A DNA stretch of 64,000 nucleotides, taken from assembly GCA_964579265.1 (NCBI GenBank), contig CAZOFO010000003.1, positions 15,968 through 79,967 on the forward strand, in the 5' to 3' direction. Origin of the DNA: Candidatus Micrarchaeota archaeon. Lineage in GTDB: Archaea; B1Sed10-29. This document shows positions 2,098 to 35,761 of this stretch, piece after piece. The number at the start of each line of letters is the position of its first letter. Position 1 is the first letter of the stretch. The notes below the pieces were generated by a model. The model saw nothing but the letters and a program-made list of their open reading frames with translations, searched no databases and had not been told where the DNA came from. The position numbers and the translations under genes are program-made.

Positions 2098-3816
2098 ATG
2101 TCAAATTTTGAAATAAAAAGAAAAGACCTAGCAGGCAGAATCGGTAAATTAAAAACCAAACACGGAGAAATAGAAACACCAACTATTCTGCCAGTGGTAA
2201 ACCCAAATAAAATAACTCTAAATTCTCAAGAACTAAAAGAAACAGGATCAAAAGCAATAATCACAAATGCCTATATTCTAAAGAAAGATCACCTACACGA
2301 AGTAATTACACAAGGGATACATAACTTCCTGGATTTCCACGGACCCATAATGACGGATTCCGGAGCCTATCAACTAATGAGATACGGAAACCTTGAAATA
2401 AACAACAGAGAAATACTGGAATTTCAAGAAAAAATAAACACAGATATAGGAGTAATGCTAGACATCCCAACAGAAAGCGAAAAAGAAAAAGAAATACATA
2501 AAACAGTGAAAAAAACTATAGAAAGAGCAAAAGAAAGCGAAGAATACATAAAAAACAAAGAAACACTACACGTAGGTCCACTCCAAGGATGGAAAAAACC
2601 CAAAATATTCAGAGAATGCGTAAAAAAACAATCAAAACTAGAATTCGATCTCCATGCTCTAGGATCAATAGTGCCGACCATGGAGAAATACAGATATTCA
2701 AAACTAATGGAACCGCTTAGAATAATAAAAGAAGAAATACCTGAAAACAGACCAATACATCTCTTTGGAGCAGGACACCCGATGCTGATGCCTTTCCTAG
2801 TGGCAATGGGTGCAGATATGTTTGACTCAGCAGCTTACTCTCTTTACGCTGAAGAAGGAAGATACCTAACATCTACCGGAACCAAGAAACTTGAAGAAAT
2901 TAATTATTTACCCTGTAATTGCCCGGTATGCACAAAGGCAGAGAATAATCCACAAAATCTGGAAAAAGAAAAAACCAAGAAAAAACTAGCAAAACATAAT
3001 CTACACGTTACCTTCAAAGAAATAAATAAAATAAAACAATCTATAAAAGAAGGAACACTCTACGAACTACTTGAAACAAAATCAAGATCCCACCCATCAC
3101 TCAAAAAACTAATGGATGAACTAACAAGCGATACAAGAACAATAGAAAAAAGAGACCCAGTATCAAAGAAACACATGTTCGTAGTATCGGAATACAGCAA
3201 AAAAAGACCGGACTACAGGAGAGCAATTAAAAAAGCTAAAAAAATAAAAGAAGAACAAGAGAAAACAATAAATACTCCTGAATTTGGAGAAGTTCCTTTA
3301 AGCTTAATGGAACTCTACCCGTATTCACATACAGGAAGAGAAATAAAAGAAGATAAAAGAAAAAATATAGAAGATTTAAAGAAATTAAAAACGGCTAGTA
3401 AATACTGGCTAGGAAAAGATATAGTTCCAAAAGACGTCGAAATAAAAAAATCACCAAAAACAGGTAAAATAAGAAAACTAATCAGAAGAGGAGAACTCTA
3501 CTTAGTGATAAGAGCAAGCGACTACATGTTCCTACTACACGAAGCAGCCAAAAAACTACATAGAGAAACTAAATACCCTAAAAGAAGAATAGTAATGAAC
3601 GAAGAAGCATCTGAATTCGTTGAAAAAGGAAAAACAGTATTCAACAAATTCGTTACAGATATCGATCCCGAACTAAGACCCGGTGAACCAGTATTAATGG
3701 TAAATGAAGAAGACGAACTCCTTGCTGCAGGAGAAACTTATCTATCAGCAAAAGAAATAAAAGAAATGGACAGAGGAGAAGCAGCAAAAAACAGATGGAA
3801 AGCTAAAAGAGACTAA
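2098..3816 (+). CDS. tgtA: Archaeosine tRNA-guanine transglycosylase (ArcTGT) with C-terminal PUA-like region
   Basis: TGT catalytic motifs DFHGPIMTDSGAYQ and LFGAGHPMLMPFLVAMGADMFDSAAY; zinc site CNCPVC; 572 aa fits archaeal ArcTGT; K/E-rich insertion present. Confidence 0.85.
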   Translation: MSNFEIKRKDLAGRIGKLKTKHGEIETPTILPVVNPNKITLNSQELKETGSKAIITNAYILKKDHLHEVITQGIHNFLDFHGPIMTDSGAYQLMRYGNLEINNREILEFQEKINTDIGVMLDIPTESEKEKEIHKTVKKTIERAKESEEYIKNKETLHVGPLQGWKKPKIFRECVKKQSKLEFDLHALGSIVPTMEKYRYSKLMEPLRIIKEEIPENRPIHLFGAGHPMLMPFLVAMGADMFDSAAYSLYAEEGRYLTSTGTKKLEEINYLPCNCPVCTKAENNPQNLEKEKTKKKLAKHNLHVTFKEINKIKQSIKEGTLYELLETKSRSHPSLKKLMDELTSDTRTIEKRDPVSKKHMFVVSEYSKKRPDYRRAIKKAKKIKEEQEKTINTPEFGEVPLSLMELYPYSHTGREIKEDKRKNIEDLKKLKTASKYWLGKDIVPKDVEIKKSPKTGKIRKLIRRGELYLVIRASDYMFLLHEAAKKLHRETKYPKRRIVMNEEASEFVEKGKTVFNKFVTDIDPELRPGEPVLMVNEEDELLAAGETYLSAKEIKEMDRGEAAKNRWKAKRD

Positions 3817-3853: not shown

Positions 3854-5542
3854 CTACAATACTTTAAATACAGCTAAACAATTAGTTTCCTGGTCCTTCA
3901 CTTCACAGCCTTCAGGATAATTGTAAACTTCTTCAAACCTATCATCCGAAGATAAATACTCTACAAATTCAATAGTATATGTGTCTCTAGTAGTTTCCTC
4001 ATGAATAAAGCTACTTCTAATAATCAAGTAATCGACTCCTATAGTCTCAACTACATCATAAGACTTATCAAAATGAGTTAAAGCAATATCCATACCAGGA
4101 TATTTATTACTAATGCTCTTCCTCCTACAGTGATAATCAATCATATGATCCCAGTGATAAAAAACCACAGAATCCTCTTCTGTATTTTCTCTTACCCAAT
4201 CACATCCTTCAAAAACCATTTCAGAAGGAGTTAAATCTCTTAAAGATTCAGTATGTCCATAAGAACCAACTAAAAACAACCCAAATACAGATAAAACAAA
4301 TATAGATTTAAATAATATCTTCAATTTATCTTTAATTCTTTTTCTTCCTTTAATATAATCTACTAAGTTTCCTATTTTCCCGTAAATCTTTTCCAACGCA
4401 AAACCTCCGGCCATTGATAAAGGAGCCACTACAAATAAAGTATTTCTCGAAACACTACCAATATCTTTGTCCCAAATTAATAAATAAACAAAAAAGAAAG
4501 ATATCAAAACCCATAGAACAGGTATAAGATACTTCTTCTTCCTTTCAAAGAAATATACAATGAATCCAAGGATTCCAATTAAAAAGATAGGTACGCTGTA
4601 AGCAAAACTTATATAATTAAACAACCCTTCTTCATGTAAATTTCCCCTATGTCCTGTCATAACAGGTAGATCTACATCTATATCAGGTAATTCTTCTTCA
4701 TAGCTACCTTCTTCCCTTAAATCAATTCCAAGAGGATTCAAAACTCTATGTGAATCAAAACCTAGTCCATTTCCTGCTCTATAATTATGAATTATCCAAG
4801 GACCCATCATGAACAGAGTAATAACTATTAAAATACTGAAATCTTTGAAAAACTTATTTAAATCTTTCTTATAAACATAAAGAACTATTAAAAATACAAA
4901 AGGAATAACTAGAACATTTTGAGCAGTTAAAACTGAAAAACCAAATAAAATACCGGTTGAAAATAAATAAAATCTTTTTTCCTCCTCTAAATAACTATAA
5001 AAGAAATAAAAAGACCCTATCAAAAACATCAAAGCCACAAGCTCAACATATATAAAAACAGTATGAGTTATCAAAGCAGGGATAGAAAGATACAAAGCCA
5101 CTGAAAAAACCCCAGACTTTACAGAATGCATCTTCCTAACCAATAAAAATAATAAAAGAGCAGAAATAACTGAAACTATAGGCATAAACATCCTCATACC
5201 TACTTCACCAGCTATAGAGTAAGAAAAACCTAACAAAATAAATAACATTGGTTCTCTAGTAAGAGGACGATCTCCTCTTATTTCAGTTTCTCCAAAAACA
5301 GTTCTAGAAAGTTCAAAACTCTCACCAAAATTTTCTGATCTTGTCAAATAAAATCCCTCATCTCCATAACCTAAAGGCTCGTACAAAGAAAATCTCAAAG
5401 TGATTAGAAAACTAGATAGTAAAATTAAACCTAGTAAAAAATACCATAAATAATCCTCCCTCTCAAAAATACCATAAATCCATCCTTGGTATTTATCTAA
5501 ATCTGAAAAACCCAGACTCATATCACATCTAAATATTACCAA
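3854..5542 (-). CDS. Putative GT-C fold membrane glycosyltransferase (ArnT/PMT-like), ~12 TM plus C-terminal soluble domain
   Basis: Many TM helices; first loop has an acidic YGDEGFY motif resembling the DE motif of GT39/GT83 enzymes; 562 aa. Family assignment is tentative. Confidence 0.4.
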   Translation of the reverse strand: MVIFRCDMSLGFSDLDKYQGWIYGIFEREDYLWYFLLGLILLSSFLITLRFSLYEPLGYGDEGFYLTRSENFGESFELSRTVFGETEIRGDRPLTREPMLFILLGFSYSIAGEVGMRMFMPIVSVISALLLFLLVRKMHSVKSGVFSVALYLSIPALITHTVFIYVELVALMFLIGSFYFFYSYLEEEKRFYLFSTGILFGFSVLTAQNVLVIPFVFLIVLYVYKKDLNKFFKDFSILIVITLFMMGPWIIHNYRAGNGLGFDSHRVLNPLGIDLREEGSYEEELPDIDVDLPVMTGHRGNLHEEGLFNYISFAYSVPIFLIGILGFIVYFFERKKKYLIPVLWVLISFFFVYLLIWDKDIGSVSRNTLFVVAPLSMAGGFALEKIYGKIGNLVDYIKGRKRIKDKLKILFKSIFVLSVFGLFLVGSYGHTESLRDLTPSEMVFEGCDWVRENTEEDSVVFYHWDHMIDYHCRRKSISNKYPGMDIALTHFDKSYDVVETIGVDYLIIRSSFIHEETTRDTYTIEFVEYLSSDDRFEEVYNYPEGCEVKDQETNCLAVFKVL

Positions 5543-11759: not shown

Positions 11760-12374
11760 CTATTGTTTTTCATCTTTTTCAGTGTATCTTCCTCTTTTTT
11801 CTATTTTTCTCATCTTGCTTAATATTCTTTTCTTATTGTATTCTTTTTTTAAGTTTTCCCATATTTCGTTAAATTCTTTCCAGTGTGTGCTTTTGAGCAT
11901 TTTTTTGAATACTAGGAGATCCATTGCTTTGTCTTCTATTCTTTTTGTTTTTTCGGAGAGTCCGAAGTCTATGAAGTATAGTTCTTCTTCTTTTCTTATT
12001 ATATTGGATGTTGTTAGGTCGTTGTGAACTATGTTTTCTTTATGTAGTTTTTTTATTAGTTTTCCTATTTCTTTTCCTATTTTTGAGGGTTTTTCTTTTC
12101 CTTTTTTTATTCTTTCTTTTATTGTTTCTCCTTCTATGTATTCCATTATTATATTGGATTTCTCTGTATCTACTTGGAATATGTAGGGTGTTTTCACTGC
12201 TTTTCGAGATCTTCTCATCATTTTGGATTCGTTGAGGGTTCTTCTTTTCTTTATTGTGTCGTCTAGTTCTTTTATTCTGTGTTTTTTTGGTTTTCTTTCT
12301 TTTTCTACTGTTTTGAATCCTAGGTAGTTATTTTTGTAGAGGGTTGCTTCTGCTCCTTTGTATATTATTTCCAT
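11760..12374 (-). CDS. bud32: KEOPS subunit Bud32 (small RIO-type kinase)
   Basis: ~200-aa atypical kinase: glycine loop region, catalytic HNDLTTSNII and DFG (IDFGLS); located near kae1. Confidence 0.75.
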   Translation of the reverse strand: MEIIYKGAEATLYKNNYLGFKTVEKERKPKKHRIKELDDTIKKRRTLNESKMMRRSRKAVKTPYIFQVDTEKSNIIMEYIEGETIKERIKKGKEKPSKIGKEIGKLIKKLHKENIVHNDLTTSNIIRKEEELYFIDFGLSEKTKRIEDKAMDLLVFKKMLKSTHWKEFNEIWENLKKEYNKKRILSKMRKIEKRGRYTEKDEKQ

Positions 12375-12389
12375 TTTTTCACTTTTTTG

Positions 12390-12803
12390 CTAGAATAGTT
12401 TTTTTCCTACTCTTTTTATTCTTACTTCTGGGTTTGTTAATCTATCGCATTGTCTTTGAGTTTCTAATTCTATTTCAAAACTAGTTTTGTCGTCTGGTTC
12501 CTGGATGTTTTTTATAGTTTCAAATGTTTCTGCTGGTGGTTTTTCCGGTACTTCTTCTATTATTGCTTTTAGTTCTATCTCTTTTACTTCGTATTCGTAT
12601 TCTATCTCTATTTCACCTGTAAAAGTAACTAGACATCTGTTTTCACCGATTTCTTGTTTTTGGATTGGTTCTAGATGGTGTTCTACGTCTGGGTCTGTTC
12701 TAGCTACTTGTATTAAGTTTGAAATGATAGGGTAGGAGAGTACAATTACTACTGCTATTATTATTAAGGTTATTAATGTTTTGTGGCTGGTTCCTTTTTT
12801 CAT
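12390..12803 (-). CDS. Hypothetical membrane-anchored protein inserted between kae1 and bud32
   Basis: N-terminal TM LITLIIIAVVIVLSYPII, acidic E-rich body, no recognisable domain. Confidence 0.4.
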   Translation of the reverse strand: MKKGTSHKTLITLIIIAVVIVLSYPIISNLIQVARTDPDVEHHLEPIQKQEIGENRCLVTFTGEIEIEYEYEVKEIELKAIIEEVPEKPPAETFETIKNIQEPDDKTSFEIELETQRQCDRLTNPEVRIKRVGKKLF

Positions 12804-12847
12804 TTTTTCGCCTCTGTTTTTATTTGTACTTCTTTATTTTTTATATT

Positions 12848-13843
12848 TTATTTTTTTGCTCTGTATTTGTTGGTTCTCCAGTTGGGTTTTATATCTATTT
12901 TTTCCGGTTTTTTAGCTTTTTCTTTGTATATTTCTCCTGTGTAGGCTATCATGGCTCCGTTATCTCCACAGTATTCTCTTTTTGGGGTGTGGAAGCTTGC
13001 TCCGTGTTCTTCTGCCATTTTTTCATCAATTTCTCTTAGTCTGGTGTTCATTGCTACTCCTCCGGTTAATAGTAGTTCTTCTTTTTTGGTGTGGGCTATT
13101 GCTCTTTCTGTCACTTCTACTAGCATTGAGAGAATTGTTTCTTGAAATGAATAAGCTAGGTCTTCTTTTGTATATTCTTCTTTGTTTTTTAGTTTTTTGT
13201 ATTCTTTTTTTGCTTGTGTTACTAGTCCTGAGAAGGATAAGTCCATTCCTTTGACGGTGTAGGGTAATTCGATGTAGTTTTCTCCTTTTTCTGCCATTTT
13301 CATTATTTTTGGCCCTCCTGGCATCTTTAGATTCATTTCTCTTGCAAATTTATCAAAGGCGTTTCCTATGCCTATGTCCAGTGTTTCTCCATGTATTCTG
13401 TATCTTGAACCTGCATATGATATTATTTGGGTGTTTCCTCCTGAAACGTATTGTACTAGTGGGTCTTTTGCTTCTGTATCTTTTTTACTAACTTCTATGT
13501 GGGCTATACAATGATTAACTGGAACTATATTTGCTTTTAATTCTTTAGATAGTTTTTTTGCTAGTTCAACTCCTTGAAGTAGACAGGGGGGCAATCCTGG
13601 TCCGTTTGCAACTGCTATTAAATCTATTTCGTCTTTTTCTATTCCTGCTTCTTCTATTGCTTTCTTTAATGTTTTTTCTCTCGTTTTTTCATGGTGTTCT
13701 GCTGCTTCTCTTGGTATTATCCCTTCTCCTTCTTCTGGTTTGTAGATGCTCTTTTCGTTCGCGATTATCTCTTTGTTTTTGGTTATCCCTATTCCCAGGG
13801 TGTGTGCTGTTGATTCTATTCCAAGACAGTTCATTTTTTTCAC
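12848..13843 (-). CDS. kae1: tRNA N6-adenosine threonylcarbamoyltransferase Kae1 (KEOPS catalytic subunit)
   Basis: MNCLGIESTAHTLGIGI..., HCIAHIE, GGVAMN motifs of the Kae1/TsaD ASKHA fold; 331 aa. Confidence 0.85.
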   Translation of the reverse strand: MKKMNCLGIESTAHTLGIGITKNKEIIANEKSIYKPEEGEGIIPREAAEHHEKTREKTLKKAIEEAGIEKDEIDLIAVANGPGLPPCLLQGVELAKKLSKELKANIVPVNHCIAHIEVSKKDTEAKDPLVQYVSGGNTQIISYAGSRYRIHGETLDIGIGNAFDKFAREMNLKMPGGPKIMKMAEKGENYIELPYTVKGMDLSFSGLVTQAKKEYKKLKNKEEYTKEDLAYSFQETILSMLVEVTERAIAHTKKEELLLTGGVAMNTRLREIDEKMAEEHGASFHTPKREYCGDNGAMIAYTGEIYKEKAKKPEKIDIKPNWRTNKYRAKK

Positions 13844-23901: not shown

Positions 23902-25257
23902 ATGAATGTTTTCGATAGGGGGTTCTTTAAAATGTCACTGAGAAGTTTTCTGAAGAGGCAAAGAGAGAGGGAGAATTTGAATAAGGTTTCTAGACAGGTT
24001 AATCCTGACTTTGAAGCAAGTTCAATAGCTTTTGAAGATCAATCAAAACCGGTTGTATTCGAGAATGTGGAAGGTTATCCTGATATCAAGATGGTTTCTA
24101 ATATTGTGTCCTCTAGAGATATGATAGCGGATTCATTGGGTGTTGATAAAGGAGATATACTTTTTGAATTATCAAATGCTTACGATTCTCTAGAAAAATG
24201 CGTTGAATCTGATAAATCTATTAAGAGTTATAATAATTTTGGTAAACCTAACCTGATAGATCACTTGCCTATCCTTAAGTATTATAGTAAAAAAGAAGAT
24301 GGGGAAGTAAAGGATCCTAGGTACCTTGCTTCCTGTATGGTTATAGCTAAGGATCCTGAAGACGGTTCTCAGAATCTATCTTTTCATAGGTTAATGTATC
24401 AAGGAGATAACAAGTTCACAATAAGGATAGTTCCACGTCACTTATATGAAATAAATGAAAAGAAAGAAGGAGATTTAGAAGTAGCTATAATAAGAGGAGT
24501 AGATCCTAGAATAGAGATAGCTGGAGCTACATCAGGTTCTCCTGATATGGATGAACTAGAGTATGCTAATGCTTTAATGGATCAAGATCTCGAGTTGATT
24601 GATCTAGACGGTTTAAAAATTCCTGCAGATTCAGAAGTTGTTATGAAAGCAAGAATAACTCAAGAAAAAGACGTAGAAGGTCCCTTTGTCGACTTATCTG
24701 AAACTTGGGATAAAGAAAGACAACAACCTGTGCTGGAAGTAGATAATTTATACATGAAAGAAAATCCTTATGTTAGGTTCCTCGTACCAGGAAAAAACGA
24801 ACACAAACACTTGATGGGTCTTCCACAGGAACCTAGGATATATAATAAAGTGAGAGAAACAGTCCCTACAGTTCAAAACGTAATAATATCTAAAGGAGGA
24901 TGCTCTTGGCTTCATGGTGTAGTAAAAATAAAAAAGAGGAATGAAGGTGATGCTAAAAACGCTGGAATGGCGGCACTAGCTGGTCATCCTTCCATGAAGA
25001 GAGTGGTTATCGTGGATGAAGATATCGATCCTACAGATCCACAAGAAGTTGAATGGTCAATAGCGACTAGAATGCAGCCTCACAAAGACATAAACTTTAT
25101 AAAAAGAGCAAAAGGATCTTCTTTAGATCCTTCTCAAGATTATAAAAATAGATTAATGACGAAATGGATAATTGACGCTACTATACCTCACGACAAGGAC
25201 GAAGACTTTTCCAAAGCAAAAATACCTCAAGTAGAAGATAAAGATACGGAGGAATAA
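23902..25257 (+). CDS. UbiD-family decarboxylase, candidate trans-anhydromevalonate 5-phosphate decarboxylase
   Basis: UbiD-like N-terminus (VVFENVEGYPDIKMVSNIVSSRDMIADSLGV) and 451-aa length; immediately upstream of acnX/ipk/mvk genes. Confidence 0.7.
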   Translation: MNVFDRGFFKMSLRSFLKRQRERENLNKVSRQVNPDFEASSIAFEDQSKPVVFENVEGYPDIKMVSNIVSSRDMIADSLGVDKGDILFELSNAYDSLEKCVESDKSIKSYNNFGKPNLIDHLPILKYYSKKEDGEVKDPRYLASCMVIAKDPEDGSQNLSFHRLMYQGDNKFTIRIVPRHLYEINEKKEGDLEVAIIRGVDPRIEIAGATSGSPDMDELEYANALMDQDLELIDLDGLKIPADSEVVMKARITQEKDVEGPFVDLSETWDKERQQPVLEVDNLYMKENPYVRFLVPGKNEHKHLMGLPQEPRIYNKVRETVPTVQNVIISKGGCSWLHGVVKIKKRNEGDAKNAGMAALAGHPSMKRVVIVDEDIDPTDPQEVEWSIATRMQPHKDINFIKRAKGSSLDPSQDYKNRLMTKWIIDATIPHDKDEDFSKAKIPQVEDKDTEE

Positions 25258-25258
25258 C

Positions 25259-26437
25259 ATGCATCTAACAAAAGAAGAAGAAAAAATGCTTGAATCTGGA
25301 TCAAAACCGGTTAGAAAAGCAATGGAGCTACTGGTAAGACTAGGAGATATTTACGGAGCTGAAGAAATGATAGAAGTTAACTCAGCTCAAGCATCAGGCG
25401 TATCATATAAATCAATAGGAGACCCAGGTATAGAGTTCCTAGAAGGATTTGCAGAAGAAGGAGCAGAAGTGAAAATACCTACCTTTGCAAATCCAGCTGG
25501 AATGGATCTAGAAAGATGGAAAGAAATGGACGTGTCTGAAGAATTTGCTGAAAAACAAAAAAGGATAATCAAAGCAATGAAGGAAATGGGTATAATTACC
25601 ACGACATCCTGTACTCCTTATCTATTTGGGAACCTGCCTAGAAAAAACGAACATATAGCATGGGCGGAATCCTCTGCAGTTTCATTCGCTAACTCTGTAA
25701 TAGGAGCTAAAACAAATAGAGAAGGAGGTCCATCAGCACTATCAGCAGCTATAACAGGAAGAACTCCTAATTACGGACTACATTTAGAAAAAAATAGAAA
25801 ACCAACTCACCTTATAGAGGTTAAAACTGATCTAGAAACTATTTCAGATTTCGGAGCCCTTGGATCTTGGGTTGGAAGAGAAGTAGAGGATGGAAAACCC
25901 TATTTCAAAGGAATTAAAAATGCTAAGACAGATGAATTAAAATCTCTAGGAGCAGCAATGGCAGCATCAGGAGCAGTAGCACTATACTTCGTGGGAGGGA
26001 TAACTACTGATAGAGAAAAACCTGAAGACCTGGAAAAAATCGAATTTACAGAAAAAGAAAAAAAAGAAGAATACCAAGAACTAAACCAAGCTCAAGATCC
26101 TGATCTAATCGTATTCGGATGTCCACACGCATCAATAGAAGAAATAAAAGAAATATCTGAATCACTGGACGGAGAAACATTGGAAAAAGACCTCTGGGTA
26201 TGCACAAATAGAGCTGTAAAATCCTGGGCCGATAGAATGGGTTACACCGAAAAAATAGAGGAATCAGGTGGAAAAGTACTCTGCGATACCTGTAATGTAG
26301 TATGTCCTCTGGAAGATATGGAATATGAGAACACAGGTACAAACTCAGGTAAAGCAGCTAACTACTTACCTGGTTTCTGTGACCAAGAGATAATTTTCTC
26401 AGATAGAAAAAAATTGATAAAAAAGGCGATAAAATGA
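25259..26437 (+). CDS. Aconitase X large subunit (DUF521), candidate phosphomevalonate dehydratase large subunit
   Basis: DUF521/AcnX-type sequence (SAQASGVSYKSIGDPG...TTTSCTPYLFGNLPRKNEHIAWAESSAVSFANSVIGAKTNREGG); stop overlaps the small-subunit start. Confidence 0.7.
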   Translation: MHLTKEEEKMLESGSKPVRKAMELLVRLGDIYGAEEMIEVNSAQASGVSYKSIGDPGIEFLEGFAEEGAEVKIPTFANPAGMDLERWKEMDVSEEFAEKQKRIIKAMKEMGIITTTSCTPYLFGNLPRKNEHIAWAESSAVSFANSVIGAKTNREGGPSALSAAITGRTPNYGLHLEKNRKPTHLIEVKTDLETISDFGALGSWVGREVEDGKPYFKGIKNAKTDELKSLGAAMAASGAVALYFVGGITTDREKPEDLEKIEFTEKEKKEEYQELNQAQDPDLIVFGCPHASIEEIKEISESLDGETLEKDLWVCTNRAVKSWADRMGYTEKIEESGGKVLCDTCNVVCPLEDMEYENTGTNSGKAANYLPGFCDQEIIFSDRKKLIKKAIK

Positions 26438-26841
26438 AAATCAAAGGAAGATCAATATCAAAAGGTGAAGCAAAAGGAGAAGTAATGATATCTAAGGAAC
26501 CAATAGGGTTCTATGGAGCTGTAAATCCAGAAACAGGTGAATTTATAGAAGAGGGACATGAATTAGAGGGAAAAAATATCTCTGGAAAAATACTAGTATT
26601 CCCAAAAGGAAAAGGATCTACAGTAGGATCTTATGTCCTCTACGGTTTGGCAAAAAATAACAAAGCACCGAAAGCTATAATAAACAAAGAAACAGAAACA
26701 ATCGTTGCAACAGGATGTATACTTGGTGAAATACCTTGTGTGGATAAACTAGAAAAAGATCCTTTAAAAAATCTAAGCGAAGGAGAAAAATTAAAGGTAA
26801 ATGGGGACCAAGGAACTATTGAAAAAATGAATGAAGAATAG
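26434..26841 (+). CDS. Aconitase X small subunit (DUF126), candidate phosphomevalonate dehydratase small subunit
   Basis: ~135-aa swivel-domain protein (ISGKILVFPKGKGSTVGSYVLYGLAKNNKAPKAIINKETETIVATGCILGEIP) translationally coupled to the large subunit. Confidence 0.7.
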   Translation: MKIKGRSISKGEAKGEVMISKEPIGFYGAVNPETGEFIEEGHELEGKNISGKILVFPKGKGSTVGSYVLYGLAKNNKAPKAIINKETETIVATGCILGEIPCVDKLEKDPLKNLSEGEKLKVNGDQGTIEKMNEE

Positions 26842-26852
26842 AGGTATTTTCT

Positions 26853-27635
26853 ATGGATAATTTAAAACTGCTTAAAGTAGGTGGATCAATAATCACTGAA
26901 AGAAAAGCAGAAAAACCTACTCCAAGAGAAAAAGAAATGGAAAGAGTTGCAAAAGAGATATCAAAATCTTACTCTGAATCTATGAAAATGGTTTTAATAC
27001 ATGGGGCAGGTAGTTACGGTCATCCTATAGTTAAGAGAACAGGTATATCTAATGGAATGTCTAATAGAAAAGATAAAGTTAATTTCGCAGAAACCCAAAG
27101 ACTTCAAAATAAATTAAATTCATTATTTACCAAAAAACTAATAGAACAAGGCCTACCAGCTTTTCCCTTCCAGGCTTCGGCTTCAGCAGTGAGAAAAAAT
27201 GAATTAAAAAGAATGGAAGTTGATCTAATTAAAAAACTCTTGGAAGAAAATGTTATACCTGTACTTTACGGTGTACCTGCTTACGATGAAGATAAAGGTT
27301 GTTCAATTCTTTCGGGAGATGAGATAATGCCTTTCTTAGCTAAGGAATTAGATGCAAACCTAATGCTCCATGGTACAGATGTAGAAGGAGTTTATACTTC
27401 TGATCCTTCTGAAGATGATTCTGCAGAATTATTAAAGAATATAGGTTCTTTTGAAGAAGCTAAAAATTATTTAGGAGGAAGTAAACATACTGATGTGACT
27501 GGTGGGATGTTGAATAAAATAGAAAAAGCATTTGAATTAAATGTGGATAGTATTATCTTCAATGCTTCTACCAAAGGTAATATTAAGAAAGTTCTGAATG
27601 GTGAAGAAATTGGGACCTATATAAATGCTTATTAA
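26853..27635 (+). CDS. ipk: Isopentenyl phosphate kinase (amino-acid kinase family)
   Basis: LKVGGSIIT...KMVLIHGAGSYGHP glycine-rich motifs of the IPK/amino-acid kinase fold; 260 aa. Confidence 0.75.
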   Translation: MDNLKLLKVGGSIITERKAEKPTPREKEMERVAKEISKSYSESMKMVLIHGAGSYGHPIVKRTGISNGMSNRKDKVNFAETQRLQNKLNSLFTKKLIEQGLPAFPFQASASAVRKNELKRMEVDLIKKLLEENVIPVLYGVPAYDEDKGCSILSGDEIMPFLAKELDANLMLHGTDVEGVYTSDPSEDDSAELLKNIGSFEEAKNYLGGSKHTDVTGGMLNKIEKAFELNVDSIIFNASTKGNIKKVLNGEEIGTYINAY

Positions 27636-28637
27636 TTATCTTGAAATTGATCCATTTACTCCCATTTTTGTAATAATAGTTTTTCCTCCTTCTTTTTCTA
27701 TTGCTCGGGCTATTCCTTCCTGTTTCTCATTTGATGTAAGTGCGATCATTATGCCTCCTTTTCCTCCTCCGGATAGTTTTGCTCCGTAGGCTCCGTTCTC
27801 TCTTGCAGTTTGAATTAGTCTTTCTAGTTTTGGGTGGCTTACTCCTAATGTCTTCAGTTTCTCCTGGTTTTTGTTCATCAGTTCCCCTAGTTCCTCAGGT
27901 TTATTTTCTTCAACTGAACTTGCTCCTTTCTCGACCAATTCTTCTATTTCATTGAATATTCTGTTATAGCTTTCCGGGTGCTTTTCCCATCCTTTTTTTA
28001 CATAAGGGACTGTTTCACTTGTTTCTGATTTTATCTGTGTATCTCCTATTACTATTTGAAGAGGTTTTGGATCTTTATTTTCGTATTCTATACCTATTTC
28101 TTTTTCTTCTTTCTTCCTAACTGTATTGTATCCTCCTAATGAGCTTGAAATTATTTCACTCCCCGATGCTGCCCCTCCGTGTATCCTTACTTGTATAGGG
28201 TATATTGTTTTGAAGTATTCTTCTGCATTCATCTCTGTATCAGTTACTTTATTTAAGGTTCTTAGCAGTGATGAGGTTACTGCGGTAGAACTGCTCATTC
28301 CTCCTGATTCTTTAGGTATTTCTGTATCTATTTTTATCTGTAGACCTGTTTCTAAGTTTTTATATTCGTTATAGATAGATAAAAGATCGATTAAAGGGTC
28401 TAATTCATGTGTATAATCTTCTGGAGAATTATATTCAACTTTTTTTATTTTCTCTAGTTCTAAGTTTTTTTCTCCGTATCCTTTGGATTTTATATTTATT
28501 TTTTTATCTTTTCTTTTTTCGATTTTTGTCTCTGTATATTTTCCTATTGATGCTATCAATGCTTTTCTTCCATAGACTACGCTATGTTCTCCCAGTAGAA
28601 ATATATTTCCTGGTGCTTTTGCTTTTTTTCTTTTCAT
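27636..28637 (-). CDS. mvk: Mevalonate kinase (GHMP kinase)
   Basis: APGNIFLLGEHSVVYG GHMP motif 1 and GxSSS-type motif (GGMSSSTAVTSSLL); 333 aa; upstream of rps2, a common archaeal arrangement. Confidence 0.8.
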   Translation of the reverse strand: MKRKKAKAPGNIFLLGEHSVVYGRKALIASIGKYTETKIEKRKDKKINIKSKGYGEKNLELEKIKKVEYNSPEDYTHELDPLIDLLSIYNEYKNLETGLQIKIDTEIPKESGGMSSSTAVTSSLLRTLNKVTDTEMNAEEYFKTIYPIQVRIHGGAASGSEIISSSLGGYNTVRKKEEKEIGIEYENKDPKPLQIVIGDTQIKSETSETVPYVKKGWEKHPESYNRIFNEIEELVEKGASSVEENKPEELGELMNKNQEKLKTLGVSHPKLERLIQTARENGAYGAKLSGGGKGGIMIALTSNEKQEGIARAIEKEGGKTIITKMGVNGSISR

Positions 28638-29317: not shown

Positions 29318-30553
29318 TTATCTGCTTATGTAGTGTTCTATTCTGATCAATTCATTTAGTTTTGCTACTCTTTCTCCTCCTGCTATCCCTGTTTTTATTA
29401 TTGGTATGTTTTCTGCTAGTGCTATGTGAGCTATTGTTGAGTCGTTTGTTTCACCTGATCTATGGGATATTACAGGGGTGTATCCAATTTCTTTTGCTTT
29501 TTTTATTGTTTTTCTTGTTTCGGTTATTGTGCCTATTTGGTTTGGTTTTATAAGGATGGAGTTGCAGGCTTTTTTTTCTATCCCTTTTTCTAATCTTTCT
29601 ATTTTGGTTGTGAATAGATCGTCTCCGCATATTGTCTTTTCTGGGTTTTTTTCTGTTAATTCAGCGTGTTTTTCGTAGTCTTCTTCTTGTAGAGGGTCTT
29701 CTATATATTCTAAGTCGTATTTTTCTATTAGTTTTTGGATGTATTCTAATTGTTCTTCCGGTGTTCTTTCTTTATCTTGGTATTGATACTTTCCTTTTCT
29801 ATAGAATTCAGATGCTGCTACGTCTATTCCTAGTTTTATATCTATTTCAGGGTTTAAACCATTTTCTTTTTCTTTAATTTGTTTTAATGTTTTTTCTCTT
29901 GCTTCTTTTATCGTTTCTAGAGATTTTTCATTATTTAGAGTAGTGGTATATCCATTTTCTAGGTCTTTACCTGCTGTGAAGTGTTTATCTTTCTTTTTTA
30001 GTATTTTTTTCACGTTCTTTTGCATTTTTACATTTACTATGCATGATTCTTTGAATGTGTCTGTTTTTATCGGTATTGATAGGAATTCTTGTATTTCAGG
30101 GCCTTTTCCTGCGTGTTGTCCTCCTCCTATGAGTTTTCCTAGTGGTTGTGGTAGTATGTATTCATTTCTTTCTTCTAGGTGGAAGTATAGTGGTTTTTCT
30201 TCTGTATCTGCTGCTGCTTTTGCTATTGCTGTTGATAGAGAGAGGGTTATTGCTGCTCCGTAGTTTTCTAGATTTTCAGTTCCGTCTATTTCTTTTATTT
30301 TTTCATCTATTTCTTCTTGGTTTTCTGAGTTCATCCCTATTATTGACGGGTATAGCTGTCTTTCTGCTTTTTTAATTAGTTCTTTTGGTTTTTCTGGTGT
30401 TTGTTTTACTTCGTGTTTTCCTGCTGATGTTCCTGTGGGGGTGCTTGCTCTTCCAAATCCTGTTGAGGTATAAACATCTGTTTCTATTGTTTTTTCTCCT
30501 TTTGAATTCAGTATTATCTTTGAATCAATTTCTTTTATATCTGATTCTTTCAT
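29318..30553 (-). CDS. eno: Enolase
   Basis: SHRSGETNDSTIAHIALAEN...IKTGIAGGERVAKLNELIRIE enolase C-terminal signature; 411 aa. Confidence 0.85.
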   Translation of the reverse strand: MKESDIKEIDSKIILNSKGEKTIETDVYTSTGFGRASTPTGTSAGKHEVKQTPEKPKELIKKAERQLYPSIIGMNSENQEEIDEKIKEIDGTENLENYGAAITLSLSTAIAKAAADTEEKPLYFHLEERNEYILPQPLGKLIGGGQHAGKGPEIQEFLSIPIKTDTFKESCIVNVKMQKNVKKILKKKDKHFTAGKDLENGYTTTLNNEKSLETIKEAREKTLKQIKEKENGLNPEIDIKLGIDVAASEFYRKGKYQYQDKERTPEEQLEYIQKLIEKYDLEYIEDPLQEEDYEKHAELTEKNPEKTICGDDLFTTKIERLEKGIEKKACNSILIKPNQIGTITETRKTIKKAKEIGYTPVISHRSGETNDSTIAHIALAENIPIIKTGIAGGERVAKLNELIRIEHYISR

Positions 30554-30600
30554 TTTGGTTTCTCCTATTATGTTTTTCTATTTTCTCGAGACTTAGGTAA

Positions 30601-30708
30601 TGGGGCCAGCGAGATTTTCCTCAAAAGAGTCCTGTGGACTCCTGTTGATCTTGAACTCACGTCACCACCGCCCCGGGGTGGTAGGATGCCAGGCTACCCT
30701 ATGGCCCC
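30601..30708 (-). tRNA. tRNA-Pro (anticodon GGG, tentative) with ~34-nt non-canonical intron in the T-loop region
   Basis: Manual fold on minus strand: acceptor GGGGCCA/TGGCCCC, D-arm GGGT-AGCCTGGC-ATCC, anticodon arm ACCACC-CCGGGGC-GGTGGT (6-bp stem, C33), T-stem GTGAG...CTCGC split by ~34 nt. 108 nt total. Conserved rpoN-tRNAPro position. Confidence 0.55.
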
Positions 30709-30902
30709 ATTCGCGAGTATTTGTTTATTTCATCTATTATGTCTACTTGGGCTGTGAACATTCTTCTACAGCAGTATCTTTCCAATTTTAATTCGTCCAT
30801 TACTTTTTCTGGGTTTTCTCCGTTTTCTATCTTTTCTTTGTATTCTTCCCAGAGGTGTCCTATTGGTTTTCCACAACTGAAGCATCTTACGGGTATCATC
30901 AT
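30699..30902 (-). CDS. rpoN: DNA-directed RNA polymerase subunit N (Rpb10)
   Basis: MIPVRCFSCGKPIGHLWEEY...LERYCCRRM zinc-bundle signature; last 3 codons overlap the tRNA 5' end. Confidence 0.85.
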   Translation of the reverse strand: MMIPVRCFSCGKPIGHLWEEYKEKIENGENPEKVMDELKLERYCCRRMFTAQVDIIDEINKYSRMGP

Positions 30903-32166: not shown

Positions 32167-32285
32167 TGCGGGGAACGGGATGTTCACCCAAAGAAGCTAA
32201 TAGCTTCTTCTTGGTTTTGAACCCGTGAAGGCACTAAGCCACATGGCCCTCAACCATGCCCTTTTGACCGCTCAGGCATCCCCGC
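32167..32285 (-). tRNA. tRNA-Leu (anticodon GAG) with ~35-nt non-canonical intron at T-loop position 59/60
   Basis: Manual fold: acceptor GCGGGGA/TCCCCGC, D-loop GAGCGGTCAAAA, anticodon arm CATGG-TTGAGGG-CCATG, long variable arm GGC-TTAGT-GCC, T-stem ACGGG...CCCGT interrupted after TTCAAA by a 35-nt hairpin-forming insert. 119 nt. Confidence 0.7.
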
Positions 32286-34761: not shown

Positions 34762-34843
34762 CGCTGGGAAGGGGATTCGAACCCCTGTGGCCGTGAGGCC
34801 ACCAGCTTTCCAGGCTGGCGCATTACCGCTCTGCCATCCCAGC
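34762..34843 (-). tRNA. tRNA-Ser (anticodon GGA), class II with long variable arm, no intron
   Basis: Manual fold: acceptor GCTGGGA/TCCCAGC, D-loop AGCGGTAA, anticodon arm CCAGC-CTGGAAA-GCTGG, variable arm TGGCC-TCAC-GGCCA, T-arm AGGGG-TTCGAAT-CCCCT; 82 nt. Confidence 0.8.
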
Positions 34844-34915: not shown

Positions 34916-35761
34916 TTACTTTTTTGGCTCTATTAGTACTTTTTTGGTTTTTACTATCTTTCCTTTTTCTTTTTTTTCTGTTCTATTTATTTTTTTTAAG
35001 GATTTTCCTATTGCCACTGATTTTCCGTTTTGTGTTAATAGTACTTGTTTTTCTTTACCTATTTTTCCTTTGATTTTTTTTATTCCTGGTGATTTTAGGT
35101 CTTCTCCGTGGCTTATTGATTTTAAAGCTGTTTTTTTTATCTCTATTTCTGGCATTTCGTTTAGAGCATTTTTTAAATTTATTAATGCTTTTTCTAGTTT
35201 TCTTTCTTCAATTAGTTTTTTTATTTCTTCCAATTTAAAAGCGTCTTTCTCTTTCCATTTTCCTATTTCGGTTCTTCTGAGTTCTTCAAGATTGGTTTCT
35301 GTCTTTATTTCTTTGCTCAGGTCTTTTACTAGTGTTCTGATGTAGGTTCCGTGCTGGCATTTAACGCTGAAGGTATGTGTGTTATTTTTTTTGTTTAGGT
35401 GTTTTATTGAATATATCTTTCTTTTTCTTTTTTCTCTTTTTACTGCGGATTTTTCAGGGGGTATTTGTTCTATTTTGCCTTGAAATTTTTTCAAGGCTTT
35501 TTTCATTTTTTCTTTTTTCACTTCTTTGTTTGTTTTTATTTCTACTAGGTATTTTTTGTCTTTTCTTTGTATGTATTCCTGTATCTTTACTGCTTTTCCT
35601 ATTGTTATTGGAAGTAAGCCTGTAGCGTAGGGGTCTAGAGATCCGCAGTGACCTGTTTTTGTTTTTAATAATTTGGATATTTTTTCGGTTATTTCTGGAC
35701 TGGTTTTCTCTTTTGGTTTGTCTATTAGAATTATTCCTTTTCTTTTTCTGGTTTTATTCAT
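34916..35761 (-). CDS. cbf5: H/ACA RNP pseudouridine synthase Cbf5 (TruB family, with PUA domain)
   Basis: TGHCGSLDPYATGLLPITIG is the TruB catalytic Asp motif; conserved cmk-cbf5 neighbourhood. Confidence 0.8.
   Translation of the reverse strand: MNKTRKRKGIILIDKPKEKTSPEITEKISKLLKTKTGHCGSLDPYATGLLPITIGKAVKIQEYIQRKDKKYLVEIKTNKEVKKEKMKKALKKFQGKIEQIPPEKSAVKREKRKRKIYSIKHLNKKNNTHTFSVKCQHGTYIRTLVKDLSKEIKTETNLEELRRTEIGKWKEKDAFKLEEIKKLIEERKLEKALINLKNALNEMPEIEIKKTALKSISHGEDLKSPGIKKIKGKIGKEKQVLLTQNGKSVAIGKSLKKINRTEKKEKGKIVKTKKVLIEPKK

Follow-up and report, generated by a model that had tools for sequence, protein, structure and literature searches.

The 64,000-nucleotide window analysed here, a part of contig CAZOFO010000003.1 of a DPANN archaeon from soda-lake sediment, contains between the genes for RNA polymerase subunit N (rpoN) and enolase an element that folds as a tRNA but carries an insert within its T-loop and a cytosine at the position of the canonical U33. 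This locus raises the question whether such an element can be a working tRNA gene. On the minus strand the genes follow each other in the order rpoD, tRNA-Leu, L18e, L13, S9, rpoN, tRNA-Pro, enolase, S2 and mevalonate kinase. The sequence anatomy, together with conservation and covariation among relatives, indicates that the element is very probably a functional elongator tRNA-Pro(GGG) gene of a Candidatus Iainarchaeum-like archaeon, the T-loop of which is interrupted by an intron of the bulge-helix-bulge (BHB) type.

An earlier note on this DNA had described a 108-nt tRNA on the minus strand, and every sequence element that it listed was found there. The lower boundary of its span at position 30601 was retained, whereas the upper one had to be corrected from 30713 to 30708; the interruption of the T-stem was likewise recovered, with a length of 35 nt (30649 to 30615) instead of about 34 nt. 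Read in the direction of the gene from 30708 to 30601, the window sequence starts with GGGGCCA-UA-GGGU-AGCCUGGC-AUCC-U-ACCACC-CCGGGGC-GGUGGU-GAC and continues with GUGAG-UUCAAG(35 nt)U-CUCGC-UGGCCCC-A. It comprises a 7-bp acceptor stem (GGGGCCA/TGGCCCC) with the discriminator A73, the two nucleotides U8 and A9 between the acceptor and D stems, a D-arm GGGT-AGCCTGGC-ATCC with a 4-bp stem and a normal 8-nt loop (AGCCUGGC) that includes G18 and G19, the variable region GAC, and a 5-bp T-stem (GTGAG/CTCGC), the halves of which are separated by the insert with its hairpin AGGAGTCC-ACA-GGACTCTT. Without the 35 nt, the T-loop reads UUCAAGU, a 7-nt loop in agreement with the rule U54 U55 C56 R57 A58, and the mature form has 73 nt, the terminal CCA not being encoded. 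Moreover, the sequence contains G1-C72, G2-C71, G3-C70, A73, G35, G36 and G37, which are determinants of the archaeal prolyl-tRNA synthetase (ProRS), reportedly established with the M. jannaschii enzyme, and of Trm5.

The identity of the element became apparent to standard tRNA finders when the insert was taken out. ARAGORN called three tRNAs in the window, the unspliced tRNA-Pro not being among them, and a search of the window with Rfam at gathering thresholds (29 bits for RF00005) returned the same three tRNAs and missed the tRNA-Pro gene as well. Applied with the default threshold to both strands of the sequence devoid of the 35 nt, ARAGORN called a 73-nt tRNA-Pro(GGG) on the minus strand, as assigned before, and nothing on the other strand, and a plus-strand tRNA gene was rejected on this ground. 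The intron-less homologues in two other contigs (compared contigs are designated by L and a number) scored 53.6 bits (L013) and 55.3 bits (L015) with the Rfam tRNA model, and the missing score of the unspliced gene is attributed to the 35-nt insert in the T-loop. By means of an acceptor/T-arm scan that tolerates long inserts, five tRNAs were detected in the window, two of which carry a 35-nt T-loop insert, namely tRNA-Pro(GGG) and tRNA-Leu(GAG) at 32285 to 32167. Several other candidates at the locus were rejected. The plus-strand open reading frame (ORF) 30600-30791 runs antisense to rpoN and the tRNA and was treated as spurious; the weak Rfam matches to snoZ107_R87 (16.7 bits, gathering threshold 50), freshwater-2 (19.5 bits, threshold 49.9) and PsrR1, with E values of 0.5-6, were regarded as chance hits; a C/D-box guide RNA inside the intron was discarded since 35 nt are too short; and an intron in the anticodon loop was dismissed, as ARAGORN with option -i gave nothing extra and the total length of the arm is exactly canonical.

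At least nine relatives with independent assemblies, metagenome-assembled genomes (MAGs) of Ca. Iainarchaeum, carry the tRNA-Pro gene between rpoN and enolase. The gene order rpoN-tRNA-Pro-enolase was observed in L001-L012, L014 and L094-L099, which originate from NCBI MAGs, JGI, ENA and Logan and encode enolases 62-100% identical to that of the window; L098 and L099 are assemblies of the window's organism and match the window sequence base for base from the anticodon loop on. The enolase homologues constitute a small close set with 62-74% identity, and the following matches fall to 46%. Comparison of the related rpoN-tRNA-Pro loci, which the earlier note had proposed, revealed a gene that is kept, with near-invariant exons and a compensated intron hairpin: within the clade, the exons are fixed except for one compensated stem pair (A:U to G:C), the outer pair of the anticodon helix, and the T-loop positions 57 and 59. 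All 22 pairs of the cloverleaf are standard in five of five homologues from three lineages, and six of the pairs show double changes. In view of this pairing and the recurrence at the locus, the tRNA-Pro element is, as judged from sequence comparison, far beyond chance. A proline tRNA with G34 is the usual archaeal decoder of CCT and CCC, and these two codons account for 260 of the 813 proline codons in the window ORFs.

A pattern scan found the tRNA-Pro with the loop CCGGGGC in five of 185,579 species genomes, which comprise three soda-lake MAGs of Candidatus Iainarchaeum (Iainarchaeota, DPANN), one MAG of the same clade (JBMCFZ01) and one genome of Ca. Alkanophaga liquidiphilum. The nearest outgroup, L015, L017 and L018, was identified by an rpoN-anchored metagenome scan and contains an intron-less tRNA-Pro(GGG) with the loop UUGGGGU right after rpoN, followed by rpoK. 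A tRNA-Pro is hence present at exactly the site where, according to the earlier note, many archaea have one, and since the outgroup copy is intron-less and has U33, both the intron and C33 are derived in the soda-lake clade. In the outgroup (about 1398-1600), rpoK has stayed next to tRNA-Pro, as in the classic arrangement rpoN, tRNA-Pro, rpoK, eno. Within the window clade (window 30553-30601), enolase directly follows tRNA-Pro, and rpoK is absent from that position. The overlap of the tRNA 5' end with the end of rpoN, reported before, was evident from the sequence and the ORF list and amounts to 10 nt in the window. The rpoN frame (30902 to 30699) ends with SRMGP-TAG and covers the first 10 nt of the tRNA (30708 to 30699), its stop codon TAG being identical with U8-A9-G10 of the tRNA. 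In L007 (about 3865-3875), rpoN ends in TAA 1 nt short of the tRNA start, and in the outgroup contig L015 (about 1395-1400) the two genes overlap by 1 nt. The Logan contigs L095-L099, which were derived from different runs, all start within the palindrome CCCCGGGG of the anticodon arm; this shared start point is regarded as an assembly breakpoint due to the inverted repeat.

The insert in the T-loop appears to be a BHB intron. The archaeal splice signal consists of a 4-bp helix between two 3-nt bulges, with nucleotides 34 and 35 canonically located inside the helix (PMC4090602). This location implies that each cut is made after the second nucleotide of a bulge (PMC4090602), and cutting 2 nt into each bulge of the tRNA-Pro precursor yields a 73-nt tRNA with a 7-nt T-loop, by which the canonical length is restored. 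The 3-4-3 geometry of the motif was found in all nine sequence variants of the tRNA-Pro gene and in all three variants of the tRNA-Leu gene, and the central helix has four of four pairs in 11 of these 12 variants (8/9 Pro, 3/3 Leu), the window copy of tRNA-Pro having three of four. The flanking helix h is provided by the T-stem, with five of five pairs in all variants, and the helix h' along with the upper hairpin of the intron is backed by compensatory changes in the nine Pro variants. An alignment of the nine sequences showed the full intron structure to be paired in 94% of the cells (97% for the 8-bp helix, 77% for h'), with double changes in five pairs and 15 cells. None of 500 shuffles attained the observed paired percentage or covariation score; five double-change pairs were attained by 218 of the 500, and this count is thus not above that of the shuffles. 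Shifting the 3' partners by 1-3 columns reduced the pairing to 37-53%, and RNAalifold independently predicted the same T-stem and intron hairpin. The minimum free energy (MFE) structure calculated with ViennaRNA shows the anticodon hairpin shifted in register, its triloop being GGG (-49.9 kcal/mol, versus -44.3 kcal/mol for the cloverleaf with BHB motif), and was judged uninformative for tRNA-Pro, given the covariation. According to this result, the C-rich/G-rich anticodon arm (30664-30682, minus strand) could misfold.

A similar intron is present in tRNA-Leu(GAG), which is located between rpoD and L18e (window 32167-32285, minus strand; intron 32181-32215). This intron has a length of 35 nt, lies at position 59/60, displays a strict 3-4-3 BHB motif (TTCA/TGAA) and is kept with compensatory changes in L001, L006 and L007. 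The earlier note had placed the two introns at the same position, and this view was borne out: both comprise 35 nt, with a central helix TTCA/(T or G)GAA and 3-nt bulges that lead to 59/60. A covariance model built solely from the nine Pro T-loop-plus-intron sequences detected tRNA-Leu(GAG) as the only other significant match within the 64 kb analysed (33.7 bits, with an E value of roughly 2.5e-4) and gave up to 40.9 bits (L006) with the Leu orthologues of relatives. The same model found nothing significant in 79 other rpoN loci, the weakest listed match having an E value of 0.73. The Pro and Leu introns share up to 74% identity, compared with a mean of 53% and a standard deviation of 6% for shuffled sequences. 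These data lend moderate support to a paralogous relationship of the two introns, this rating being given since the shared T-loop supplies part of the model score. In L012 (PWFL01000039.1, T1Sed10_39R1 MAG), the anticodon stem of a tRNA-Ser(GGA) gene on the minus strand (3612-3725) is interrupted in its 5' strand by a 33-nt insert, near position 30/31, and the orthologous gene of the window (34762-34843) has no intron. This comparison implies that gain and loss of introns are ongoing in the clade.

The second peculiarity of the gene concerns the anticodon arm. The earlier note had regarded this arm as atypical on account of C33 preceding the anticodon GGG and of a 6-bp stem. The former claim held: C33 is present at position 30675, and the entire loop CCGGGGC with C32, C33 and C38 is invariant in the clade, the U33 of elongator tRNAs being replaced throughout. 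The stem proved to be less atypical than stated, since the 6-bp helix and the 3-nt variable region are common to the intron-less copies of Alkanophaga (ACCAGC/GCUGGU) and of the outgroup (UCCAGC/GCUGGA). The outer pair of the helix covaries as A:U, G:C and U:A and the fifth pair as C:G and G:C, and the covariation of the outer pair (26:44) identifies it as a real pair. In the Rfam alignment of both intron-less homologues, the arm consists of a 5-bp stem and a 7-nt loop, with positions 26 and 44 able to pair and a variable region of 4 nt. The conservation of the CCGGGGC loop suggests that C33 is part of a lineage-specific, selectively maintained variant, not a sign of decay. The departure from U33 does not bar the element from the tRNAs, since exceptions are known: U33 is conserved in elongator tRNAs, except for the Candida tRNA-Ser, and is also replaced in eukaryotic initiators (PMC5041475). 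C33 is moreover encoded in tRNA-Cys(GCA) of Sulfolobales, the mature RNA of which could not be isolated (PMC7668247). For an archaeal tRNA-Pro, no description of C33 was found in a search of the literature.

Further tRNA genes with C33 were observed outside the clade. L013 (JAPHEF010000049.1, Ca. Alkanophaga liquidiphilum) contains an intron-less tRNA-Pro(GGG) with the loop CCGGGGC at 2412-2484. It shares with the window gene an almost unchanged D-arm and anticodon arm, its acceptor and T-stems are different, and it adjoins an aIF5A-like gene, not rpoN; the likeness may be due to convergence or to transfer. In other DPANN-like metagenome contigs, C33 occurs in tRNA-Arg(CCU) with the loop CCCCUAA (L030, 878-952; L063, 2431-2505; L059/L061, with the L061 copy at 2200-2276). 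The copies of L030 and L063 scored 65 and 61 bits with Rfam, confirming the alignment of the loop, and that of L059/L061 is an ARAGORN call only; other tRNA-Arg(CCU) genes from the same sample have U33. C33 may hence recur in elongator tRNAs of DPANN archaea and be less rare than the textbook rule implies.

A number of observations weigh against a functional, spliced tRNA-Pro with the proposed intron boundaries. Even a permissive Rfam scan of positions 30500-30800 returned no tRNA match for the unspliced gene at E values up to 10; a low covariance-model score had been named in the earlier note as a reason for rejecting the element, and the score is indeed lacking, the insert accounting for the miss. 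C33 replaces the canonical U-turn nucleotide (PMC5041475). In the window copy, the central BHB helix contains an A.G mismatch, which renders the motif relaxed and would demand a tolerant splicing endonuclease (EndA), and this weak helix was not predicted by RNAalifold from the nine-variant alignment. A scan of 30 ORFs of the window yielded no EndA gene, the other ORFs being located in the ribosomal-protein/RNA-polymerase cluster. With respect to the exact junction, splicing at 59/60 would leave G or U at mature position 59 among close relatives, whereas a junction at 58/59 would yield the invariant T-loop UUCAAAU, the same as in the outgroup. For the latter junction, either both bulges would have to be cut after their first nucleotide or the T-stem would be broken by a change of register, counter to the BHB rule (PMC4090602); it is kept as a caveat. 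The BHB rule therefore favours the 59/60 junction, and the exact cut sites are to be read as predicted positions.

The lack of a call by standard detectors, the violation of a near-universal elongator rule by C33 and the intact, canonical copy of the outgroup would all be compatible with a decaying pseudogene, in which an insertion broke an ancestral tRNA-Pro and U-to-C changes then spoiled the anticodon loop, with no functional tRNA remaining. Decay is difficult to reconcile with exons that are essentially invariant in relatives with enolases of only 62-74% identity, or with an insert that diverges freely while its helices are kept by compensatory change. Likewise, the sole change in an exon stem is compensated, the BHB motif is preserved in nine of nine variants, and every member of the clade has the same loop CCGGGGC. 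The invariance of the exons, the compensated intron and the kept BHB motif and loop therefore disfavour a pseudogene, which we consider highly improbable. The element might alternatively serve as tRNA-like punctuation that is recognised by RNase P and RNase Z between the rpoN and enolase messages and does not take part in decoding. It is embedded in an operon, without an obvious conserved TATA-like box upstream (L007, L094) or a T-run terminator, and overlaps the rpoN stop codon, which speaks for such a signal. Punctuation, however, needs neither a conserved anticodon loop, nor G37, nor proline identity nucleotides, nor a BHB intron that can be spliced out to leave a T-loop of 7 nt; the proline codons CCC and CCU need a decoder, and an ordinary tRNA-Pro(GGG) occupies this site in the outgroup. 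A punctuation role is compatible with a real tRNA and is no replacement for it; as an alternative to a decoding tRNA, this explanation is scarcely credible.

Another alternative accepts a functional tRNA and assumes that C33, and maybe C32 and C38, is deaminated to U, or that a non-U-turn loop alters the decoding of CCN codons or the maintenance of the reading frame. An editing reaction of this kind would have an analogue in the conversion of C8 to U8 that is reportedly carried out by CDAT8 in Methanopyrus kandleri. All three loop pyrimidines have changed together from U to C with respect to the outgroup (UUGGGGU to CCGGGGC), the identical loop is present in the distant Ca. Alkanophaga, and C33 appears again in tRNA-Arg(CCU) of other DPANN-like contigs, which hints at tolerance on the level of the lineage or at a dedicated mechanism. 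On the other hand, since CCGGGGC was demanded by the scan pattern, the joint presence of C32, C33 and C38 in Alkanophaga is in part a matter of ascertainment. C33 is moreover tolerated unedited in eukaryotic initiator tRNAs (PMC5041475) and is also encoded in the Sulfolobales tRNA-Cys, although that mature RNA could not be isolated (PMC7668247). Taken together, we regard editing or an altered decoding mode as distinctly unlikely. A wider proposal states that the CCGGGGC loop is no neutral peculiarity and has an adaptive role in place of the U33 U-turn, that the cases of Iainarchaeum, Alkanophaga and tRNA-Arg reflect a lineage-level relaxation or replacement of U33, and that RNase P additionally removes the rpoN stop codon, with maturation of the tRNA and translation of rpoN excluding each other on one transcript; as a whole it is unlikely. 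C-to-U editing at position 33 and a modified decoding of G/C-rich anticodons are possible routes to a relaxation of U33.

The functional tRNA-Pro(GGG) with a T-loop intron remains the preferred reading, and from it we infer the following route of maturation. The gene would be transcribed with the ribosomal-protein/RNA-polymerase operon or from a promoter inside rpoN; the upstream sequences of L007 and L094 showed no conserved TATA-like box, and the tRNA-Pro gene is not followed by a T-run. RNase P and RNase Z would free the precursor, in which U54-A57 would pair with the 3'-proximal GGAA of the intron (UGAA in relatives). This pairing would create the 4-bp central helix of the BHB motif, which adjoins the T-stem at one end and the hairpin of the intron at the other. 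EndA would then cleave both 3-nt bulges 2 nt from their start, behind G59 and ahead of U60, the exons would be joined by an RtcB-type ligase, and the CCA-adding enzyme would complete a tRNA of 73 nt plus CCA with the T-loop UUCAAGU. The spliced junction would read ...GUGAGUUCAAG/UCUCGCUGGCCCCA in the case of 59/60 and ...UUCAA/AUCUCGC in the case of 58/59. The mature tRNA would adopt a standard cloverleaf, with the Watson-Crick pair 26:44 lengthening the anticodon helix, and the prolylated tRNA-Pro(GGG) would read CCC and CCU.

Neither an intron at 59/60 nor the presence of C33 in an elongator tRNA of archaea is new as such. The closest counterpart of the window gene is found in Ca. Micrarchaeum acidiphilum ARMAN-2, likewise a DPANN archaeon, the pre-tRNA-Pro(GGG) of which has a BHB intron at 59/60 and the disrupted tRNA genes of which are missed by standard finders; the 59/60 intron of its pre-tRNA-Cys(GCA) is cleaved in vitro by the ARMAN-2 endonuclease (PMC3239211). 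The tRNA-Pro(GGG) of ARMAN-2 contains two T-arm introns (53/54 and 59/60) and the window gene only one (PMC3239211), and the absence of the intron from the nearest outgroup points to a gain separate from that in ARMAN-2. According to the account in PMC4090602 (citing Sugahara 2008 and Fujishima 2010), Thermoproteales and other Crenarchaeota have non-canonical BHB introns at 59/60 and other sites, with similar introns across isoacceptors. Such transplantable, BHB-defined introns that are alike in different isoacceptors resemble the Pro/Leu pair of the window, which differs in belonging to a low-GC DPANN lineage from soda-lake sediment, with only two window tRNAs carrying the family. A clade-conserved genomic C33 in place of U33 is shared with the tRNA-Cys(GCA) of Sulfolobales and with the eukaryotic initiator tRNA-Met (PMC7668247, PMC5041475); the window gene differs from these in its isoacceptor (Pro GGG), its lineage and the presence of C32 and C38 alongside. 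The features that appear to be new are the occurrence in an Iainarchaeota lineage, the clade-fixed combination of C32, C33 and C38 in tRNA-Pro(GGG), what appears to be a small family of introns common to this tRNA and tRNA-Leu, and the overlap with the rpoN stop codon. The anticodon helix of 6 bp, with a variable region of 3 nt behind it, also recalls tRNA-Pyl. A 6-bp anticodon stem and a 3-nt variable loop are characteristic of that tRNA, and the likeness is superficial, as the window tRNA has a 2-nt spacer between the acceptor and D stems, an 8-nt D-loop with G18 and G19, a UUCAA T-loop and the anticodon GGG. The tRNAs with such stems have a single nucleotide between the acceptor and D stems, a small D-loop devoid of G18 and G19, the anticodon CUA or UCA, and either a non-canonical T-loop (Pyl) or a 9/4 or 8/5 acceptor/T geometry (Sec). 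An identity resembling tRNA-Pyl or tRNA-Sec was ruled out by the GG-bearing D-loop, the T-loop, U8 and A9, the 7-bp acceptor stem, the 5-bp T-stem and the GGG anticodon.

Table 1. Coordinates of the tRNA-Pro(GGG) gene, its predicted intron and the overlapping rpoN gene in the window
Feature	Position	Strand	Evidence
Pre-tRNA-Pro(GGG) gene	30601-30708	-	Sequence; ARAGORN after removal of the insert; locus conserved in relatives
Exon 1 (acceptor 5' strand, D-arm, anticodon arm, GAC, GUGAG, T-loop 54-59 UUCAAG)	30650-30708	-	Sequence
Exon 2 (U60, T-stem 3' strand CUCGC, acceptor 3' strand UGGCCCC, A73)	30601-30614	-	Sequence
35-nt intron AUCAACAGGAGUCCACAGGACUCUUUUGAGGAAAA, predicted position 59/60	30615-30649	-	BHB cut rule (PMC4090602); compensatory changes among nine variants of the sequence
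BHB central helix, exon strand U54 U55 C56 A57	30652-30655	-	Pairs with 30620-30617 (GGAA)
Intron strand of the BHB central helix: GGAA (relatives: UGAA or UGGA)	30617-30620	-	
BHB bulge 1 (A58 G59 / A)	30649-30651	-	Predicted 5' splice site after G59
BHB bulge 2 (A A / U60)	30614-30616	-	Predicted 3' splice site before U60; AAU invariant in 9/9 variants
Intron hairpin: h' UCAA/UUGA, 1-nt bulge, 8-bp helix AGGAGUCC/GGACUCUU, loop ACA	30621-30648	-	
Anticodon loop CCGGGGC	30670-30676	-	ARAGORN structure; Rfam alignment of homologue L013 at the loop positions of the model
Loop residues C32, C33, anticodon GGG, G37, C38	30676, 30675, 30674-30672, 30671, 30670	-	
6-bp anticodon helix ACCACC/GGUGGU with loop	30664-30682	-	Rfam alignment places the outermost pair 30682:30664 at 26:44
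rpoN (RNA polymerase subunit N/Rpo10, 67 aa)	30699-30902	-	ORF list; PF01194 on the homologous gene of relatives

Beyond the tRNA-Pro locus, a tRNA-Leu(AAG) with A34 was commonly observed beside rpoN in the DPANN-like contigs L021-L082, with 15 distinct sequences. The tRNAs with A34 that were reported for ARMAN-4 and ARMAN-5 (PMC3239211) are matched by this tRNA-Leu(AAG). The window furthermore encodes an archaeal-type mevalonate cluster, which includes a UbiD-like decarboxylase, the large and small subunits of AcnX, an AA_kinase resembling isopentenyl phosphate kinase and mevalonate kinase, as well as the tRNA-modification proteins ArcTGT, Kae1 with a Bud32-like kinase and Cbf5/TruB. The genes of these two groups span the window positions 23902-28637, 2098-3816, 11760-13834 and 34916-35761.

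DPANN genomes are known to conceal disrupted tRNA genes, and earlier surveys of such disruptions in DPANN did not include Iainarchaeota (PMC5829648). The tRNA-Pro(GGG) gene described here would extend the range of BHB introns at 59/60 to the Iainarchaeota (Diapherotrites). As it is missed by ARAGORN and Rfam/Infernal, MAGs of Iainarchaeota would seem to lack a decoder of CCC and CCU, and a tRNA-Pro dropped in this way skews estimates of completeness for DPANN genomes as well as inferences on codon reassignment and host dependence; the inverted repeat of the anticodon arm would also hamper the recovery of tRNA-Pro from short-read unitigs. If the tRNA is cut from an operon transcript, cleavage by RNase P would strip the last codons and the stop codon from rpoN. 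Moreover, the intron-less outgroup, the compensatory evolution of the intron and the similar intron in tRNA-Leu(GAG) constitute a small natural experiment on intron gain, and the clade-conserved C33 along with the C33-containing tRNA-Arg(CCU) suggests that the requirement for U33 is less strict in these archaea.

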